A stretch of 64,000 bases of DNA from a phage, in sequence record PQ374922.1; one strand, written 5' to 3'. Position numbers and translations under genes: made by a program. This document shows, in pieces, positions 21,643 through 64,000 of this stretch. Position 1 is the first letter of the stretch; each line of letters begins with the position of its first letter. Below the pieces are notes generated by a model, which ran no database searches, was not told the origin of the DNA, and was given only the letters and a program-made list of their open reading frames with translations.

Positions 21643-21673
21643 TTAAATAGATAGAGTGTTATGGCTATTTAGG
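21643..21673. promoter_or_regulatory. Divergent late-promoter-like inverted repeat (TTAAATAG ... CTATTTAGG)
   Basis: Two TAAATA cores in opposite orientation between the divergent starts at 21631 (-) and 21682 (+). Confidence 0.3.
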
Positions 21674-43983: not shown

Positions 43984-44151
43984 TTACTTTTTCTTCAGCT
44001 CTTCCAGTTTGGCTTCGATCTGGTCCAGAATCTCTTTGCCTTTCTGAACAATCACTTCACCATCTTGCGCGTGTTTACGGAAGACCAGAGCACCAGCGAT
44101 GAAGCCGACAACCGCGCCAGGAAGCGCATAAACCAGCAGATCTTGTAACAT
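43984..44151 (-). CDS. Small membrane protein (55 aa) expressed from a late promoter
   Basis: ATG with GAGGA RBS; one TM helix (LLVYALPGAVVGFIAGALVF) plus amphipathic C-terminus; exact TATAAATA 29 nt upstream. Below the 60-aa cutoff of the ORF track. Confidence 0.45.
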   Translation of the reverse strand: MLQDLLVYALPGAVVGFIAGALVFRKHAQDGEVIVQKGKEILDQIEAKLEELKKK

Positions 44152-44179
44152 GATAATATCCTCGCTTTATAGGCGAGGA

Positions 44180-44187
44180 TATTTATA
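44180..44187 (-). promoter_or_regulatory. T4-type late promoter (TATAAATA)
   Basis: Exact TATAAATA on the minus strand, directly after the stop of the 411-aa gene and upstream of the 55-aa ORF. Confidence 0.5.
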
Positions 44188-49071: not shown

Positions 49072-52071
49072 TCAACCTTTCTTCTTTTGCATCATGGCAA
49101 GAAGGTTCACACGGCGCTTGTGTGACCAGCCGACCACGTCGAGGATAGACTGAATCGGATCAATGAAGGACTTCTCAAAGGCCGCCTGATAATCCACCCA
49201 TTTGCCCAGACCAAGCTCCTCGGGGAAGAACTCAGGATATGCAAAGTAGTTCTGCCCAAACGGGTTGCCCGGCTTCAACAACACCATCTGTACCTTATCA
49301 CCCGACTCGATCATCGGTAGACCCAGATCTTCGTTCTTCTCAACCAGACGGTTGTAGCCCACACACGCCTTGGCAGCAAAATGAGCACCAGATATAAACG
49401 AGCCGTCAGCAGCCACACACTTCTCTATGTCGGACACGCCTGACGCCTTGGCGATATCGTCTACAGAGAGTTTCATGTACTCCTCTTTGTACTGGGAGAT
49501 GAGCGTCTGTACTTCCTCTTCGGTGCCGAGTAGGATCTTCTCATAGCACTTGACAAGGCGCTCACGACACCATTCCGGCGTGGTGGACTTGCGGGCTTCC
49601 AGACCTTTGAACTTGATCTTCGGCTTCTCGTACTTGATACCCTCACTGTCGTACACGGCCATGGCATACATCTTCTTGGCTCGCCAGACAGCGGCTGACG
49701 CAATGACCTCACGCTCCCACACCATGCGCTGTTCAAATCCGTTCATGGTGTTACACAGAAGCTGTGCCCACTCATTGGTCTTCGGCTGGTAGTTGTCTTT
49801 GATCCATTGGTCGATATTATCAACCATAGCATGATGGTCAGTAACATCAGGCCACAACTGCTTGACAAGACGCTCAATGCAGATGTAGTTGGAGTCGGTA
49901 TCCCCTGCGATGACGAAGTCCTGGCCTGTTGTACCACACAGCTTGTTCAGATAGTCATCAGTGTAACGCTTGTTCCACTTGTTGATCAGCTGACCGGATG
50001 TGGTGATGGCTTCGGCAATGTTGAGGTTGAAGTACTCTTTGAACCAGACGTTCGAGATAGCGCCATAACCTGCGTTCATCAAGATCTTCAGACCTTGCTG
50101 TAGGGTATCTTGAGCGACGCCCAGGTCTTCCCACTTCTTCATCACTTCGGTCAGGGCATCAAGATCAATGTTCTTGTGCTCTTCATACCACTCTGGGTCA
50201 TAGTAGCGAGACTTTATGGCAGACTCAAGATGGAAGTCGCCCTTCGACATCTCTTTACACCAACCAGCCCACTGCTCATACTTCAGACCCTTGGCCTTCT
50301 CTACTTTACGGTCGCTGTAGATACCACGCATGATTTCAGACAGGAACGACATCTTCTCGTTGCTGAAGAATTGAACGTTCGGCGTGAACGACACGTTGTA
50401 GCGGCGCAGGGTTTCAAAGTGGAACTCACCCAGGGCAACCAACTCATCAACAACCTGCAGGCGTTCGTCAACCGCACGCAACATCTTGTCGTGAAGGGCT
50501 TTCATCAACCGACGTTTGTGCATCGGCGTTGCCATGTTATTCATCTGAGCAGCCAGCTCTTCACACATAGCCTCAATAATCTCGCGGCGCTGGTGTTTGT
50601 CGCCAACGATAGTCTCTGGACCGAGGTTGTACTGCTGTATGATGTGAGGATACAGGGAGTTCAAATCTTCCGAGAAGACCCAGAAGTAGATTCCTGGTGT
50701 CACATCCATGACGTATGCACCCTCAAAGTCGGTCGGACCATCGTATACACGCTGGATCTTAGGCACTATCCCCTTCTCGTACAGGCGATAGTAGCACATG
50801 GCCAGCCACGGAGCCACAGTGCCCAGACCGTCTTCATAGTTGGACTTGGTGCGGTAGGCCAGGACGAACATCAGCTGGAGCAGGCGCAGCTTCTGTTCAA
50901 GTCGCCATACCAGCTTAACGTCTTTGATACCATATCGGGTGTGTTTGCAGTAGTCGTTGAAGTACAGATCAAAGAGCGACTTGCTCTCACTGTAGTCCAT
51001 CTTCTTCTCACCCAGCTCACAATACGCAATCCAGTCAAGAGAGTAGCGTTCACGGGTGGTGTACGTGTGTTTCTTGTAGATCTGCATATAATCGAGCATA
51101 GGGCAACCCACGAACTGATACGTCGTGATATCGCCCTTCTTATCGCGAATGATACGCTTCTTAATGATACCCCAAGGACTGAGGCGCGACGTTTCAGCCT
51201 CACCCAGAACCTGATTCATGCGCTCAACAAGATAAGGGCTATCAAACGTCTCAATGTTCCAGCCTGTCCAGCCGTCGAACTGACGCTGTGACCAGAAGTC
51301 AAGGAACGAGCGCAGCAGATCTTGTTCGGTGGTGAACTCCTGATAAACAACCTCAAGACCGCCGATCTCTTTGTCTTCGGTGTCGTATGCGAATTTGTTA
51401 CGATCTTTGGCACAGGGCATACCCCAGACCATGAACTTATTGGTCGCCATATCCTGAAGCTGGATCAGGGTAATGGGGAACGCCGCATTCATGTCTTGGG
51501 TGATCTTGCCGTTGCTGTCAATGATAGGGAACTGATCAGTGACGTTGTTGCTGATGAAAGAACCAGGGAAGTGCTCACGGACAAAATCATGGTTGGCCAG
51601 AACTTGTTTATGGAAGCGGCGAATGCGCGCCTCATTCCCTTTGAACGTCTGCTGCTCAATGGTTGGGTGAGGGAATGGACCTTTGGTCATCTTTCCATCT
51701 TTCCACCCGGCGGAGAACACTTCGATATCGAGGTTAGCAATATGGATGTTGGAATAATCCGGCTCAATCTTTCCAGGAAAGCTATGGGCGATGAACTGGT
51801 ATGCATAATCGGTCTGCCCGTAAATGGCCGCACCCTGGACTTCCTTGTACTCTTCAAGATAGTTGTCAGCGTCACGCATGGAAGGGAACTGCTTGGCTAC
51901 CAGGGGTTCATTGAGAAGGCCGACCTTTTCAACATTTGAATAGTCAGCCGTGGGTAAATAGAGAGTGGGTTCGAATTTCTTTTTCAACAGACGGCGATTA
52001 CCCATGTCATCTGCAATTCGAATCAACAGGTCATTGCCCCTGCGGGCAACGTTCGTATAGAAAACGGTCAT
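49072..52071 (-). CDS. 43: DNA polymerase (gp43, family B) with 3'-5' exonuclease domain
   Basis: Exo I ANLDIEVF, Pol motif A DLNSLYPHII, motif C AGDTDSNYIC; overall collinear with T4 gp43. Confidence 0.95.
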   Translation of the reverse strand: MTVFYTNVARRGNDLLIRIADDMGNRRLLKKKFEPTLYLPTADYSNVEKVGLLNEPLVAKQFPSMRDADNYLEEYKEVQGAAIYGQTDYAYQFIAHSFPGKIEPDYSNIHIANLDIEVFSAGWKDGKMTKGPFPHPTIEQQTFKGNEARIRRFHKQVLANHDFVREHFPGSFISNNVTDQFPIIDSNGKITQDMNAAFPITLIQLQDMATNKFMVWGMPCAKDRNKFAYDTEDKEIGGLEVVYQEFTTEQDLLRSFLDFWSQRQFDGWTGWNIETFDSPYLVERMNQVLGEAETSRLSPWGIIKKRIIRDKKGDITTYQFVGCPMLDYMQIYKKHTYTTRERYSLDWIAYCELGEKKMDYSESKSLFDLYFNDYCKHTRYGIKDVKLVWRLEQKLRLLQLMFVLAYRTKSNYEDGLGTVAPWLAMCYYRLYEKGIVPKIQRVYDGPTDFEGAYVMDVTPGIYFWVFSEDLNSLYPHIIQQYNLGPETIVGDKHQRREIIEAMCEELAAQMNNMATPMHKRRLMKALHDKMLRAVDERLQVVDELVALGEFHFETLRRYNVSFTPNVQFFSNEKMSFLSEIMRGIYSDRKVEKAKGLKYEQWAGWCKEMSKGDFHLESAIKSRYYDPEWYEEHKNIDLDALTEVMKKWEDLGVAQDTLQQGLKILMNAGYGAISNVWFKEYFNLNIAEAITTSGQLINKWNKRYTDDYLNKLCGTTGQDFVIAGDTDSNYICIERLVKQLWPDVTDHHAMVDNIDQWIKDNYQPKTNEWAQLLCNTMNGFEQRMVWEREVIASAAVWRAKKMYAMAVYDSEGIKYEKPKIKFKGLEARKSTTPEWCRERLVKCYEKILLGTEEEVQTLISQYKEEYMKLSVDDIAKASGVSDIEKCVAADGSFISGAHFAAKACVGYNRLVEKNEDLGLPMIESGDKVQMVLLKPGNPFGQNYFAYPEFFPEELGLGKWVDYQAAFEKSFIDPIQSILDVVGWSHKRRVNLLAMMQKKKG

Positions 52072-52150
52072 GTAATTCTCCAGGTTATCCGTGCCGTTAG
52101 CACGTGGGCATATTTAACCATAGAGCCATTCATTGACCAAGGAGTTTATT

Positions 52151-52723: not shown

Positions 52724-52729
52724 GTTCAA

Positions 52730-52755
52730 GGGGAGGAAACTCCCCTTTCTTTTGG
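52730..52755 (+). terminator. Rho-independent terminator
   Basis: gggga-ggaaac-tcccc hairpin followed by TTTCTTTTGG. Confidence 0.55.
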
Positions 52756-52978: not shown

Positions 52979-52995
52979 AATATTTATTGAATAAA

Positions 52996-53024
52996 GTTTA
53001 CTTCTTCAATAACTGGCGTATACT
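52996..53024 (+). promoter_or_regulatory. T4-type early promoter
   Basis: -35 GTTTAC, 17-nt spacer, -10 TATACT, with A/T-rich TTATTGAATAAA upstream. Confidence 0.45.
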
Positions 53025-53073
53025 TCTAATTGTAGTACGAACAAACAACAATCTGAAGAGAAGGAAATACATC

Positions 53074-53631
53074 ATGGCAATCGAAATTATCGCTCAATCC
53101 AAATCTGGTAAAACTGTAATGTACGGCACTGAAGAAGGCCGCGCAATCACCACTCTGGGTACAATTGACGGTTCCAACCCAGTGAAAGGCGGTCGCTACC
53201 TGGTTGAATACGGTTCACACCTGCTGATGGTAAGCAAAGTCGATGGTCGTGAAATCATGATTCCCCGCAAAGAGTACTTCGACTCGCGCATTGAAGCCAT
53301 GAACTTCTTCCTTTTCCAGGAACGTCACGAACTGTTCGTTGAAGCGAAAGACGCAGGCCTGGACGATGCGACTGCCGAACTGATCGCTGAAGGTAAAATG
53401 ACTCTTGAGGCTGCTCTGGGTGACATGGATTGCGATGCTGAAGCCCATTACATCGAATATTCCGCTTATCAGAATGAATGCGAAGACGATCCTGAAGATG
53501 ACGGCTTCGACCCTGACCTTCACGGGGGCGAGGATGACAATACTCCTTCCCTGGAAGTGATCATGGCAGGCGGTCAGGCCGCTTGGGAGTGGCAGAACGA
53601 AAAGAACGCCTGGCTGGATTCCCACCTTTAA
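53074..53631 (+). CDS. Hypothetical acidic protein (about 185 aa)
   Basis: ATG at 53074 with GAAGGAAAT RBS. Confidence 0.5.
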   Translation: MAIEIIAQSKSGKTVMYGTEEGRAITTLGTIDGSNPVKGGRYLVEYGSHLLMVSKVDGREIMIPRKEYFDSRIEAMNFFLFQERHELFVEAKDAGLDDATAELIAEGKMTLEAALGDMDCDAEAHYIEYSAYQNECEDDPEDDGFDPDLHGGEDDNTPSLEVIMAGGQAAWEWQNEKNAWLDSHL

Positions 53632-53644
53632 TGTGAAGAAATAA

Positions 53645-53668
53645 AGAAAGGGGCTTAACGCCCCTTTT
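53645..53668. terminator. Bidirectional hairpin terminator between convergent genes
   Basis: aggggc-ttaac-gcccct flanked by an A-run and a T-run. Confidence 0.55.
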
Positions 53669-53669
53669 C

Positions 53670-54128
53670 TTATTCTTCCCAGAAGTCTTCGTCGTCCCCG
53701 ACAGCAGCCAGTTCCGTGTCCAGTTCTTCATCGGTAAACGGTGGCAGCACCCCGTTCTGAATCAGATAATCCATCTCATCGTCTTCCAGCTGCAGGTCGG
53801 TGGCAATATACAGCGCTCCGCTGCCCTCTTCGTCCGTCTCGATACTGTACGAAGTGTATGGCACCCCATTCACTGTAATGATGATAGAGGTCGGATCCTT
53901 AGGATCTACGTGCGCCTCGAACGGCACGCCATCAATCGGTGCATCTTCCAGGAAGGTGGCAAGTGCTACGGCGGCGCGGACAACATCAGTGCCTTCAACG
54001 CCTGCATAGATCTCTTCCGCGCCTGTCTCTTCACGATCAAACAGCTCAATCGTGATACCGTCTTGAACACCAGTCCATACAGGGATGTCATTGGTGTATT
54101 CTGATTCAAACAATTTGGAGGTTGGCAT
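53670..54128 (-). CDS. Hypothetical highly acidic protein (152 aa)
   Basis: ATG with GAGGAA RBS; CCTAAATACCCC motif about 30 nt upstream. Confidence 0.5.
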   Translation of the reverse strand: MPTSKLFESEYTNDIPVWTGVQDGITIELFDREETGAEEIYAGVEGTDVVRAAVALATFLEDAPIDGVPFEAHVDPKDPTSIIITVNGVPYTSYSIETDEEGSGALYIATDLQLEDDEMDYLIQNGVLPPFTDEELDTELAAVGDDEDFWEE

Positions 54129-54272
54129 GTTGGGTTCCTCATTGGGTTAGCCATATGGGGTATTTAGGCTTCCCGCTTGGCGAGGTCTGGTTTGTACAGG
54201 ACGCCTCTAGGAAATATTGGAGGAAGGTTTCATAGATACCCCACACTGGTTGTATGGGGTATTTAGGAGGGA

Positions 54273-55466
54273 TCAGGAAGGGGTGAATTCGTTTACAGGT
54301 ACTGCTTCGGGGATAGCCAGTTCAGGACATGCTGCCTTCATCGGCTCGATGTATGGCTTGCTACCCACAATCCAGAACAGAGTGTTCTCGTTGAGCAACT
54401 CGGGCTTGTGTTGCTGAACCCAGGTCATGACCTTGCCTTCATAGCGAGGGTGCAACTCAATATCACCCCACTGATATTCCATCAGGTCATTGTAACGAAC
54501 CCAATTAGTGGTATGAAGATCCCAATGGTGTACCTCAAAGCGAGGAAGCACGACCTCTGGCTCTTCCTTCTGCCTGATACCACTTAGGAGGCCAGCCAGC
54601 GAAACGCTCTTAGAGGCATGCTGAAGCTCCTTCTTGCCGTGTACATAGTCTGGGTTGTCGTGATAGCGACGGGTGAAGTCGACAATGTGCGGCAGATTGG
54701 CATGTTTGCCGATGATGCGCAGACGGCTCTCAATGAAGTCCAGGCGGTTCGGACCGATGCCAATCAGATACACACGCTTCAGATTAGGCTTCGGATGCAT
54801 TGCCAGCCCGGTCAGAATGCTTGTGCAAGAGTTGCACGATCCGGCTGGGATAATCAGATCGGTAATATGGTCAGGGATGTTGGCAACCTGCTCGCCACCC
54901 AGCATATGGAAGCCAGCGATGCGCTCAGGAGAATGCGCTGTATGGTCGAGGGTGATACCATATTCCAGATAATACGCCTTTGGATTCTGTTGTTCGATCA
55001 ACTTCTTACAGCGCGGCTGGATCGTGCTGTTGTAACCCGAGCCGACGAAGTTGAACTCACTACCAAACCAGGCTGACATTGCCACCATGTCGTGGTTCAT
55101 ACAGGTGGTGGGTTTGGTCGCTCCGAGTACAGTGGTTGTCTTGCCGCCGAAGTGCCGAGAGACTGCTGTCGCCATAGGGGACTGCGGACTACCAACGACA
55201 GTACCATGGATGATGTCAGGGGAGCCTCCGGCCTTGAGGTGCTCAACCATCAACCAGATGGCCTGGCGGAGTTTGCTGCCGTTGATGCCCTGCTGGCCAT
55301 TTGCATAATTGGATAGCGGCGCAAAATAATCTTCACGCTTGAACCAGACCTGCTGGTTGGTTTCGGGGTTGACGACAAGTTCGCACGGGGTGTGCTTGTA
55401 GAGATAATCTTCCCAATGGACCAGGTTGCGGTCGAGGGAAAGGGTATCGAAGATGGTCTTGTTCAT
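54273..55466 (-). CDS. PLP-dependent enzyme of the tryptophan-synthase-beta fold (ACC deaminase / D-cysteine desulfhydrase-like)
   Basis: WFKREDYFAPL...NGSKLRQAIWLM (cf. DcyD FIKRDD...GGNKLRKLEFL, with Lys as the PLP-binding residue) and Gly-rich IIPAGSCNSCTS (cf. IPVGGSNALG). Confidence 0.6.
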   Translation of the reverse strand: MNKTIFDTLSLDRNLVHWEDYLYKHTPCELVVNPETNQQVWFKREDYFAPLSNYANGQQGINGSKLRQAIWLMVEHLKAGGSPDIIHGTVVGSPQSPMATAVSRHFGGKTTTVLGATKPTTCMNHDMVAMSAWFGSEFNFVGSGYNSTIQPRCKKLIEQQNPKAYYLEYGITLDHTAHSPERIAGFHMLGGEQVANIPDHITDLIIPAGSCNSCTSILTGLAMHPKPNLKRVYLIGIGPNRLDFIESRLRIIGKHANLPHIVDFTRRYHDNPDYVHGKKELQHASKSVSLAGLLSGIRQKEEPEVVLPRFEVHHWDLHTTNWVRYNDLMEYQWGDIELHPRYEGKVMTWVQQHKPELLNENTLFWIVGSKPYIEPMKAACPELAIPEAVPVNEFTPS

Positions 55467-59773: not shown

Positions 59774-60138
59774 TCCGGAGCCTCACTGGATTGATTAAAT
59801 GTCTCCGTTATTATATTGGGAGTATGTTTATTGAATATAAACACAGGAATGGCCAATAAAACAATGACAGTGATTATTAATAGGCAAAAACTACTTTTCT
59901 ACAACATCAAGAAACTGTATCCTAACGCAGTGCCCTTCGAGTTGTGAGTGTTAACGAACAACGAGAAGCAGCCTCCATGGCTGTGGAATGGTGCTGCCCG
60001 CATAGGGCGGTGTTACGAGCGAGGGCGTCAGCCCCCTCGCGAGTTATATTAGAATAAATTAAACGCGCGCGAGCGTTTTGATTCCCGTTGGCTAAATATC
60101 TTCAACACCATATTCAAACTCAGGTGATGGAGATTATC

Positions 60139-61917
60139 ATGGCCACGCAAACAGTCCCTTCACTCGATGTCAGGGCTTTCGAGTATCTTATCAAGAAGCG
60201 CATGAAAGCTGATCCAACTTTCAAGGATTATGACTTTGAAGGTTCTGGTCTCAGTGCAATCGTGCGTATCTTGGCCTCGGATGCCAACTCTATCGGGTTC
60301 ATGCAGAACATGCTGAATGGCGAAAGCCATCTTCACTCTGCTCAACAGCGTTCTAATGTCGGTCTGGCGGCGGGGTTCTTATCTTACACCCCTCACAACT
60401 ACCAGGCAGCGTACCTGTACGCAAACGTCACAGTCACTCCATATGACGCCAGCACGGCTCCAGACACGATTGTGATGGATCGCCGCGCGATGTTCATTGG
60501 GGTGAAGGATGGAAAATCCTATAACTTCACGGTTGACCAACCTGTGAGTGCCTCTCTTGTAGACGGCTCTTACAAGTTCGAGAACATCAAACTCATACAG
60601 GGTAACTGGCTGTACAAGTCCTATGATGTGGAAGGCAGCGCGATCTCCACCTATGTGATCCCATCTTCTTCCGTGGACATCGACCATATGGTGGTGCAGG
60701 TGCAGGAATCTGAGACATCTGACGTGCGGTCTACCTTCTCACGATATGTCAGCCCGTTCGATTTGAGCCAGTATGCGCAACTCTACTTCGTTGAGCTGGG
60801 GTTGGAAGGGATGTACACGTTCGAATTCGGTGATGGGTATATCTGTAAGCGAGTAGAAGACGGGAACGTCGTGTACCTCCAGTATCTGGAGACAGCTGGT
60901 GCAGACGGCAATGACATCACTGCCTTGTCCTCCGCGTCTTCCATCGGGGGATTCAACCTTGTAGATGTTGAGCTGGTGTCAGAACGTTCTTCCGGTGGTA
61001 AGGACCCAGAGAGCATTGAGGACATCAAGCGTCTTGCTCCGCTGGCTTATCAGGCTGAGGGTGCGGCAGTGGCCGAAGTCGATTATGCTGTGTTGACCGA
61101 GCGTCTGTTCTCCAACGTCTCCCGCGCCAAAGCATATGGCGGCGACACGCTCTCTCCGCCTGACTCCGGATACGTTTACATTGCTGTGATACCTTCTGTT
61201 GGTGAGGCGCTCTCGGACGCTGAGAAGGCAGATATCGTGGCGACGTTGGACAAGTACAATGTGGGCACGATCACACCCAAGATTGTCGACGCTGAACTGA
61301 CTTATGTTGATGTCACCACCCGCGTGTTCTGGGATCCGACTTCCACGTCCTATACCGAAGAGCAGTTGAAGACAGTCGTGAAGAACGGTGTTGTCAACTG
61401 GGGCTTGGGGAATCTAGAAGGATTCGACGAACTGTTTGATAAAGAGCAGTTGCAGTCGGCCATCACCGACATGGACAGATCGATAGTGTCAAACATCACT
61501 TCTGTGAAGTATAAGCGCCATTTCAAGCCAGACTATGGGGTACTGGACAGCTTCACGTTCGATTATGGGCGCTCGATTGCGTCTGGTTCTGTGCGTATCA
61601 GTGGGTTTAAGCCGCTTCCGGCCGAGGTCGAATTCACTTACTACATACGCGACGTCAGTGGTGTCCTGAATATGTACAAGGTGAGTACAACAGACACGAC
61701 CAAGGAATATCTGGTACAAGCTGTTGGAACGGTTGATTATGTGACTGGCGTTGTTGAACTCCAGCGTATCATAGTATCCAACTACAACACTGAGGGTGTG
61801 ACAATAATTGTGTCTCCAGACGGTCTTGATCAGAACATTCAGGCCACACAGAATCAGGTGCTCCGCATCGGTGCTGTAACTGTGGAGCCGGAGGTGCGTT
61901 ATGTCCAAAGATCTTAA
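60139..61917 (+). CDS. Baseplate wedge protein (gp6 / P2 gpJ-like)
   Basis: About 590 aa; FEFGDGY-type segment typical of baseplate J-like proteins; ATG at 60139 with GGAG RBS; CTAAATAT late-like motif upstream. Confidence 0.55.
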   Translation: MATQTVPSLDVRAFEYLIKKRMKADPTFKDYDFEGSGLSAIVRILASDANSIGFMQNMLNGESHLHSAQQRSNVGLAAGFLSYTPHNYQAAYLYANVTVTPYDASTAPDTIVMDRRAMFIGVKDGKSYNFTVDQPVSASLVDGSYKFENIKLIQGNWLYKSYDVEGSAISTYVIPSSSVDIDHMVVQVQESETSDVRSTFSRYVSPFDLSQYAQLYFVELGLEGMYTFEFGDGYICKRVEDGNVVYLQYLETAGADGNDITALSSASSIGGFNLVDVELVSERSSGGKDPESIEDIKRLAPLAYQAEGAAVAEVDYAVLTERLFSNVSRAKAYGGDTLSPPDSGYVYIAVIPSVGEALSDAEKADIVATLDKYNVGTITPKIVDAELTYVDVTTRVFWDPTSTSYTEEQLKTVVKNGVVNWGLGNLEGFDELFDKEQLQSAITDMDRSIVSNITSVKYKRHFKPDYGVLDSFTFDYGRSIASGSVRISGFKPLPAEVEFTYYIRDVSGVLNMYKVSTTDTTKEYLVQAVGTVDYVTGVVELQRIIVSNYNTEGVTIIVSPDGLDQNIQATQNQVLRIGAVTVEPEVRYVQRS

Positions 61918-63948: not shown

Positions 63949-63958
63949 AGTGAAAACT

Positions 63959-63997
63959 AAATACCCCTAGATGAAACGAACACATTTAGGGGTATTT
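63959..63997 (+). terminator. Hairpin (aaatacccct / aggggtattt) after the tail-fibre gene; terminator-like
   Basis: 10-bp inverted repeat with a 19-nt loop right after the stop codon; the window ends before any T-run can be assessed. Confidence 0.4.
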
Positions 63998-64000
63998 GAA

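Follow-up and report, generated by a model that had tools for sequence, protein, structure and literature searches.

In a 64,000-nucleotide (nt) stretch of phage DNA (sequence record PQ374922.1; the whole stretch is referred to as the window), the 12-mer CCTAAATACCCC occurs twice on the minus strand ahead of a gene for an acidic protein, one copy lying within an inverted repeat. This raises the question of what reads the motif, why it stands there twice and what the inverted repeats are for. A sequence-only reading had offered either a variant late promoter with a TAAATA core or a binding site for a phage regulator. We argue that CCTAAATACCCC is most likely the published conserved motif of Vi1-like phages and a T4-type late promoter, and we infer that the hairpins pair the CCCC tail of the promoter with the ribosome-binding site of the next gene, in a manner like that of T4 lysozyme. 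What the earlier reading had missed is that the copies about 100 nt apart appear to be promoters of two separate genes, and the hairpins leaders that would mask ribosome sites. Taken as a whole, an explanation combining a late promoter, a gene deletion and hairpin gating is in our judgement likely.

A T4-type core ahead of late genes

Both minus-strand copies (54157-54168 and 54256-54267) proved to be exact matches, as the sequence-only reading had it, and have 15 nt in common, CCTAAATACCCCATA; a third copy, ACTAAATACCCC, which has one mismatch to CCTAAATACCCC, is found at 63956-63967 of the plus strand. With up to one mismatch allowed, the window contains three matches to the 12-mer against 0.12 expected, and none of 100 shuffles gave three, which rules out a chance origin. 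The motif count that had been proposed thus places the 12-mer far above expectation, whereas CTAAATA by itself, at 5 sites against 3.6 expected, is not enriched in number. The signal is the longer block and the position of the sites, not the CTAAATA count.

All five CTAAATA sites of the window are intergenic. Four lie in sense orientation 32-40 nt ahead of a start codon, namely those of the baseplate tail-tube-cap operon, the acidic-protein gene, the gp6-like wedge gene and the remnant of a deleted gene; the fifth, truncated by the end of the window, stands ahead of the first tail-spike gene, whose ATG falls just beyond that end. Predicted cores of the window are found in sense 26-40 nt upstream of baseplate, head-closure, tail-spike and other gene starts. 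The shorter TAAATA is intergenic at 13 of 18 sites while intergenic DNA makes up 11% of the window, or 72% compared with 32% for composition-matched permuted hexamers (p = 8e-4). An open reading frame (ORF) start follows TAAATA within 12-75 nt at 64% of sites as against 29% of controls. As a complete-genome proxy we used Salmonella phage vB_CECAV_050 (PQ306799; Ackermannviridae, Agtrevirus), an annotated genome of 152 kb to which the window region is 97% identical. The window belongs to an Agtrevirus-like phage of the Ackermannviridae, and its sequence also resembles that of about 280 further Vi1-like phages, which infect Salmonella, Escherichia, Klebsiella and Dickeya. Across the whole of PQ306799, TAAATA is 56% intergenic compared with 29% for permuted hexamers (p = 4e-5). 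Approximately 14 of its 18 CTAAATA sites lie 20-45 nt upstream of gene starts, mostly of virion genes, and the genes behind them include tube cap, gp6 wedge, scaffold, sheath, neck protein, tail fibre and three tail spikes; TAAATA cores also precede the endolysin, and the full motif CTAAATACCCC is present at 7 sites.

In a promoter of this kind, CTAAATA would be the -12 to -6 core of a T4-type late promoter, host RNA polymerase would read it together with a phage gp55-type sigma, gp33 and the gp45 clamp, and transcription would start about 6 nt past the last A of the core. Homologues of all three factors are encoded beyond the window and were read in PQ306799: a gp55-type sigma (phrog_234, E = 3e-52), gp33 (PF16805, E = 8.5e-18) and the clamp (phrog_223, E = 1e-64). 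The gp55 homologue, at 263 amino acids (aa) and without a Pfam match, is longer than T4 gp55, which has about 185 aa. CTAAATA, TTAAATA and TATAAATA forms of the core are all present, which is a comparison of sequence with the start predicted. In the window such cores stand in sense upstream of late genes for the tube-cap operon, head closure, gp2-like protein, tail tube, gp6 wedge and tail spike, the exceptions being genes of unknown class and the DNA polymerase gene. The sites of the window and PQ306799, 26-40 nt ahead of late-gene starts, thus share their core with T4-type late promoters.

The Vi1-like motif was probably described first in the genus proposal of Adriaenssens et al. (2012, Arch Virol). 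CTAAATAcCcc is one of two unique regulatory motifs of Vi1-like phages, with five full copies in EspM4VN (PMC7283392). It is identical to the window motif in sequence and phage family, with few full copies per ~155-kb genome, and in the accessible literature it is listed without a mechanism. According to the 2011 paper on CBA120, no late-promoter sequence had so far been recognised for the ViI family; gp55, gp33 and gp45 homologues were noted there (PMC3184105). In AG3, a scan with T4 TATAAATA that allowed one mismatch gave 17 proposed late promoters, one of them ahead of the gp6 wedge gene (PMC3121705). The late consensus of Aeromonas phage Aeh1 is CTAAATA from -12, and in T4 the motif occupies -13 to -6 (PMC1524935); the base before TAAATA is preferentially C rather than A in our sites, like Aeh1 and unlike T4. 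Altogether, site placement, the Aeh1 core, the gp55, gp33 and gp45 homologues and the published motif support a variant late-promoter consensus with a TAAATA core, one of the two readings originally offered. The motif is very probably a late promoter, its activity and start site being predicted from sequence.

The TAAATA-type cores that had been noticed between 21643 and 21673 and ahead of the gp6-like gene are likewise present, at 21643-21649, 21666-21672 and 60092-60098. The first two form a divergent pair (21643-21672): TTAAATA on the plus strand (21643-21649) faces the head-closure gene (ATG 21682), and CTAAATA on the minus strand (21666-21672) faces the baseplate tail-tube-cap operon (ATG 21631). 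A second divergent pair lies at 1248-1275, where TTAAATA on the plus strand (1248-1254) precedes a gp2-like DNA end protector (ATG 1287) and a perfect T4-type TATAAATA on the minus strand (1268-1275) precedes a tail-tube/baseplate gene (289-1233, GTG 1233).

The two copies upstream of the acidic-protein gene

The two copies 100 nt apart are almost certainly the leftover of a gene deletion. We compared the window with eight homologous loci from viral contigs (L006-L013; alignment A2). In other genera (L008-L011 and L013) a complete gene of 152-155 aa lies between the copies (L008:1007-1465; L010:1001-1468), with the motif about 26 nt upstream of its ATG. Its leader reads CTAAATACCCCATAC, a loop, GT(G/A)TGGGGTAT and the ATG, and its stop codon TAA is the TAA within the proximal CTAAATA. 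From the window, L006, L007 and PQ306799 an internal stretch of approximately 390 nt has been deleted. L007 keeps an in-frame fusion of 23 codons; an extra 1-nt loss in the window and L006 leaves a remnant of 8 codons, and L006 has a further 13-nt deletion at the 3' remnant, consistent with remnant decay. L012 is without both the intervening gene and the distal copy. In the window, the 5' end of the deleted gene survives as the mini-ORF MKPSSNIS followed by a stop (54207-54233, minus strand), frameshifted by the 1-nt loss, as seen by alignment to the intact genes of L008 and L010, and the 3' remnant, which ends in VLYKPDLAKREA and a stop (54164-54202, minus strand), has its TAA inside the proximal CTAAATA. 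Since the gene between the copies is intact elsewhere and deleted in the window, the pair represents two gene-specific promoters joined by gene loss rather than a bipartite site. The loss would have left the promoter, leader hairpin, start codon and last ~40 nt of the gene directly ahead of the acidic-protein promoter, so that both promoters would now be aimed at the acidic-protein gene.

The distal CCTAAATACCCCATA (54253-54267, minus strand; core CTAAATA 54260-54266) is accordingly a predicted late promoter, formerly that of the deleted gene. The intact gene matches the ADP-ribosyltransferase domain PF18760 (ART-PolyVal) at 47 bits against a cutoff of 31; an orthologue search with it returned only 2 loci. 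Its late promoter and hairpin leader suggest an enzyme made late and possibly delivered with the virion, for which T4 Alt is the comparison. The gene is dispensable in several Agtrevirus genomes.

The proximal CCTAAATACCCCATA (54154-54168, minus strand; core CTAAATA 54161-54167; predicted +1 near 54154-54156) is the predicted late promoter of the acidic-protein gene, 32 nt upstream of its ATG at 54128. Between diverging flanks, CTAAATA[C/A]CCCATA is unchanged here in all nine genomes, which represent three genera, and this copy has no hairpin and no significant fold (z = -0.9). The gene itself (53670-54128, minus strand) encodes 152 aa behind a GAGGA Shine-Dalgarno at 54136-54140 and belongs to phrog_3852 (function unknown); a Pfam search gave no match. 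All three genera conserve both the acidic protein and the late-type promoter ahead of it; a virion internal protein and a DNA mimic are candidate roles.

Units of promoter, hairpin and ribosome site might instead act mainly in recombination, as cassettes through which genes are shuffled, lost and gained. Promoter-stem-loop cassettes have been described for T4-type phages, the gene content between the copies varies (intact, internally deleted or, in L012, absent), tail-spike modules differ between relatives, and two tail-spike leaders have a further 30 nt or more in common ahead of the motif. The endpoints of the deletion in the window, however, lie inside the gene and not at the motif copies, so the deletion was not a recombination between repeats, which counts against this proposal; nor does it explain why the stems match the Shine-Dalgarno of their own gene, as described below. 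We regard it as very unlikely to be the main effect.

Leader hairpins and ribosome-binding sites

Leader folds were computed as RNA and compared with shuffles (z-scores; 200 shuffles for the CTAAATACCCC sites). The distal copy does lie within a hairpin (54236-54262, minus strand), in agreement with the sequence-only reading. Its 5' arm, ATACCCCATAC (54252-54262), overlaps the 3' end of the promoter and is separated by a loop (54247-54251) from the 3' arm, GTGTGGGGTAT (54236-54246), which contains a GGGG Shine-Dalgarno and ends 2 nt upstream of the ATG at 54231-54233. The RNA folds at -18.1 kcal/mol (z = -4.2), and 11 of 11 pairs are kept in 8 genomes, the sole change being U.G to U-A. For 5' ends at least 4 nt past the core, the hairpin drops from -17.2 to about -3 kcal/mol.

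The inverted repeat that had been placed after the tail-fibre gene, here the tail-fibre-connector gene, is also real (63958-63998). Together with ACTAAATACCCC it occupies 63956-63998 on the plus strand, and its 16 bp join 63958-63973 to 63983-63998, the 3' arm carrying the GGGG Shine-Dalgarno of the first tail-spike gene (ATG 64001). It folds at -21.0 kcal/mol (z = -7.7), falling to -1.2 for starts at least 4 nt past the core. In 14 loci the stem is unchanged and the loop variable; in PQ306799 and L103 the sequence continues with GGGGTATTTGAA-ATGGCTAATAAA (MANKPTQP). Consecutive tail-spike leaders (L003:940-1000 and L005:39700-39770, minus strand) share ttatacctttgttcataaattt(t)attagttcag over at least 30 nt upstream of the motif, and this shared cassette, a candidate second promoter or recombination substrate, holds a further TATAAATA-like element, CATAAATT.

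The same layout is found with unrelated stems. In the leader of the gp6-like baseplate wedge gene (60092-60141, plus strand), CTAAATA (60092-60098) is followed by ATCTTCA.CACC, which pairs with GGTG.TGGAGAT at 60123-60134 (GGAGA Shine-Dalgarno) ahead of the ATG at 60139; the leader folds at -18.9 kcal/mol (z = -3.5), with -14.6 for the long and -5.9 for the short transcript. Single-sequence folds, used because MAFFT misaligns the shorter loop of L029/L030 and makes formal pair counts unreliable, show that this pairing is kept across genera with altered bases: U.G becomes C-G in Kuttervirus-type leaders, and in L029/L030 TAAATA-T...GGAGA-T becomes TAAATA-G...GGAG-TT. Among distant gp6 relatives (28-36% identity), TAAATA was present in 4 of 27 leaders and the hairpin design in none of the 27, so the design is not inherited with the gp6 gene. 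The leader of a 55-aa gene (44149-44187, minus strand) combines a TATAAATA core (TAAATA 44180-44185) with a hairpin at 44156-44182, in which ATATCCTCGC pairs with GCGAGGATAT (GAGGA Shine-Dalgarno) ahead of the ATG at 44149-44151. This hairpin folds at -24.3 kcal/mol (z = -6.1); the leader gives -15.9 kcal/mol long and -1.5 short, and 10 bases of the Shine-Dalgarno window are paired to bases that lie upstream of the predicted start.

In PQ306799, five of the seven CTAAATACCCC sites read CTAAATACCCC(AT), a loop of 5-17 nt, (AT)GGGGTAT, 2-8 nt and ATG, and lie ahead of three tail-spike genes, a GTP-binding-domain gene and the deleted gene. These five hairpins fold at -17 to -21 kcal/mol (z from -3.6 to -7.7), and 0 of 200 shuffles were as stable. 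Other stems of the same layout are CCTCTGC/GTGGAGG at the PQ306799 endolysin, CCTTCA/TGAGGG at the neck protein Hc2, TCTTCA/TGGAGA and TCCTCGC/GCGAGGA (GTGAGGA in PQ306799). The endolysin leader, TAAATAcctctgca...tgtggaggtattttcttATG, whose arm pairs with a GGAGG ribosome site, has -16.1 kcal/mol in the long and -1.1 in the short form; it lies outside the window, at L004:13355-13397 (PQ306799 ~54355-54397, minus strand). All leader hairpins taken together fold at -16 to -24 kcal/mol (z from -3.5 to -7.7) and hold the Shine-Dalgarno in the 3' arm, 2-8 nt upstream of the ATG, and in every one of them the bases following TAAATA complement the Shine-Dalgarno of that gene.

We scored a site as sequestering when at least 6 bases of its Shine-Dalgarno window paired with bases ahead of the predicted start, and when removal of those upstream bases cost 7 kcal/mol or more. 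This applied to 8 of 55 TAAATA sites and to 5 of 804 permuted-hexamer sites (p = 2e-7), and 4 of those 5 overlap a true TATAAATA. A control anchored on gene starts (4 of 22 compared with 7 of 160, p = 0.03) was noisy, because a first-ATG gene caller misplaces starts inside or upstream of the hairpins, and was replaced by the site-anchored permuted-hexamer control. An Rfam search of 53600-54400 gave nothing at the elements, all matches being far below gathering scores.

These findings suggest how the hairpins might work. The bases after TAAATA would pair with the downstream Shine-Dalgarno (CCCC with GGGG), so that in long read-in transcripts a helix with a folding energy of -16 to -21 kcal/mol would close off the ribosome site. 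A late transcript from the embedded promoter would lack the 5' arm and leave the site open, and translation would then occur only on RNA from the gene's own late promoter. The 5' arm starts within or just past TAAATA, which places the promoter in the DNA of the 5' strand if the predicted start holds; since the structure is lost for any start at least 4 nt past the core, the argument tolerates an error of several nt in the start site. At the distal site only 5 nt, and no terminator, separate the end of the same-strand upstream gene from the motif, so read-through would be expected there. In T4 e, soc, 49 and I-TevI, the ribosome site is masked on the longer transcripts made early, and nearby late promoters yield RNA without the 5' strand (PMC3014915). 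The layout here is the same, with the late promoter in DNA that codes for the 5' strand of the helix and the Shine-Dalgarno or AUG masked, the start being predicted, and the PQ306799 endolysin leader resembles the arrangement of the T4 lysozyme gene e. The stems are unrelated in sequence to those of T4, and, unlike in T4, the design occurs on many genes (tail spikes, gp6 wedge, neck protein, the ADP-ribosyltransferase-domain gene and small ORFs). On the strength of anatomy, statistics and the T4 precedent, we lean with some caution towards a hairpin that gates the ribosome site.

Hairpins of this kind might also be weak intrinsic terminators, insulators or stabilisers of the 3' end of upstream RNA, with an incidental overlap of promoter and ribosome site. 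An A-rich tract (TAAATA), a G+C-rich stem and TATTT follow one another as they would in a terminator, the GTP-binding-domain and endolysin leaders of PQ306799 end in GGGGGTATTTTCTT and GGAGGTATTTTCTT, and the tail-spike hairpins lie between consecutive late genes. Yet the 3' arm is always 2-8 nt upstream of a start codon and always holds the Shine-Dalgarno, neither of which a terminator would require, and the gp6 hairpin follows a separate, real terminator. In a terminator scan the hairpins at 54236-54262 and 63958-63998 did not pass, because no T-run follows the stem, whereas true terminators nearby did, for example at 53646-53668. An intrinsic role in termination or RNA stability is in our view quite unlikely.

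The binding site for a phage regulator, which the sequence-only reading had set beside the promoter, would require the inverted repeats to be DNA sites for a dimeric protein. The palindromic arms ATACCCCAT / ATGGGGTAT recur at several sites and antisense folds come near to sense stability at some of them, as such sites would predict. The arms, however, stand 4 to 17 nt apart, their sequences are particular to each gene and follow its Shine-Dalgarno, G.U pairs in 5 of 9 sense stems are mismatches in DNA, and the conserved proximal copy has no second arm. We did not find support for this proposal and consider it extremely improbable.

The CCCC(ATA) tail may be constrained as part of promoter recognition, as a discriminator or initiation element read by the Vi1-type gp55, which is compatible with the explanation favoured here and would mean that the motif marks a subset of late promoters that are strong or fire at a different time. 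Of the 7 sites, 5 carry an identical CTAAATACCCCATA, two of them without a pairing partner; CCCCATA of the proximal copy is kept across three genera while its flanks diverge; and pyrimidines dominate the first positions after TAAATA, in hairpin-less leaders as well. Many well-placed cores of virion genes, on the other hand, continue with other bases (GCC, GAT, ATA, AAA, CTG), and in hairpin leaders the downstream bases follow the gene's own Shine-Dalgarno and not one consensus, which makes such an element rather doubtful. A further proposal starts from the retention of ACCCCATA in three genera and at partnerless sites: the enlarged Vi1-type gp55, or an extra factor, would recognise it as a second element, which would define a separate late class for the tail spikes, the ADP-ribosyltransferase and the helicase. 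This could be a very-late class, to which Shine-Dalgarno sequences would have evolved to pair, giving two late tiers that are absent in T4; we think it unlikely.

Several observations weigh against the combination of late promoter and gating hairpin. The distal stem varies at one pair only, and thus provides no true covariation or compensatory evidence. Strand asymmetry is modest, the sense strand being the more stable in 6 of 9 leaders (sums of -145 and -133 kcal/mol), in a test that is weakly informative. Two CTAAATACCCCATA sites, the proximal copy and the helicase site of PQ306799, have no GGGG partner or significant fold, and since CCCCATA is kept in three genera at the partnerless proximal site, pairing with a Shine-Dalgarno is not the sole constraint on CCCC. 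The tail-spike sites follow genes that are themselves late, and the gp6 site has a terminator upstream and no near same-strand gene, so that a block of early read-through is not obviously needed at either. Because some hairpin genes follow late genes, the role of the hairpins may exceed the blocking of early expression, and at the tail-spike and gp6 leaders their purpose may be to tie translation to the gene's own promoter rather than to prevent early synthesis. With regard to the promoter, many late genes lack an exact TAAATA, for example the major capsid gene, and GTTAAATA (52109-52116, minus strand) stands 39 nt upstream of the DNA polymerase gene (49072-52071), for which late expression would not be expected. 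In the searchable literature we found no transcript 5' ends, expression timing or transcriptome for any Ackermannviridae phage. The GTTAAATA site could be due to chance, a sigma-70-like -10 element or true late expression.

Neighbouring genes and meaning for the family

A strong bidirectional intrinsic terminator, GAAAGGGGCttaacGCCCCTTTT (53646-53668), separates the convergent genes 52987-53631 (plus strand) and 53670-54128 (minus strand), and a second intrinsic terminator lies at 52728-52747. The minus-strand gene at 54273-55466 (397 aa) is a threonine dehydratase in the PQ306799 annotation and matches only phrog_3650 (function unknown), so that this annotation may be unreliable. For two genes of PQ306799, cecavS50_159 (L003:4008-4041) and cecavS50_128 (L005:11918-11960), the true start is probably downstream of the annotated one. 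In the tail-spike gene the annotation begins at an ATG in the hairpin loop, 10 codons early, with the conserved N-terminus MANKPTQP following the hairpin. The GTP-binding-domain gene is annotated from upstream of its own promoter core; from a start after the hairpin, its protein aligns over 1-242 of 242 to phrog_2114.

The motif itself is already known, as are the promoter type and the hairpin mechanism from T4-type phages. To the published Vi1-like motif we add that the TAAATA core marks many more late genes, that CCCC can pair with a GGGG Shine-Dalgarno, and that the tandem copies are in all likelihood a deletion scar; apparently undescribed are the cCcc tail as mostly an anti-Shine-Dalgarno sequence, the wide spread of the design in Ackermannviridae and the tandem copies as the scar of a deletion. 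None of this overturns current understanding: the biology is ordinary, the host family new and the interest modest. Likely start-codon errors of the PQ306799 annotation are corrected, and a conserved Vi1-like motif that had previously been listed unexplained is given a concrete, testable mechanism. These phages are under development for biocontrol and therapy, and in swaps of tail-spike modules promoter, leader hairpin and ribosome site would have to be treated as one compact unit. More broadly, our results suggest that a late promoter inside a hairpin that masks the ribosome site is used widely in Ackermannviridae, including for endolysin and the tail spikes that determine host range.

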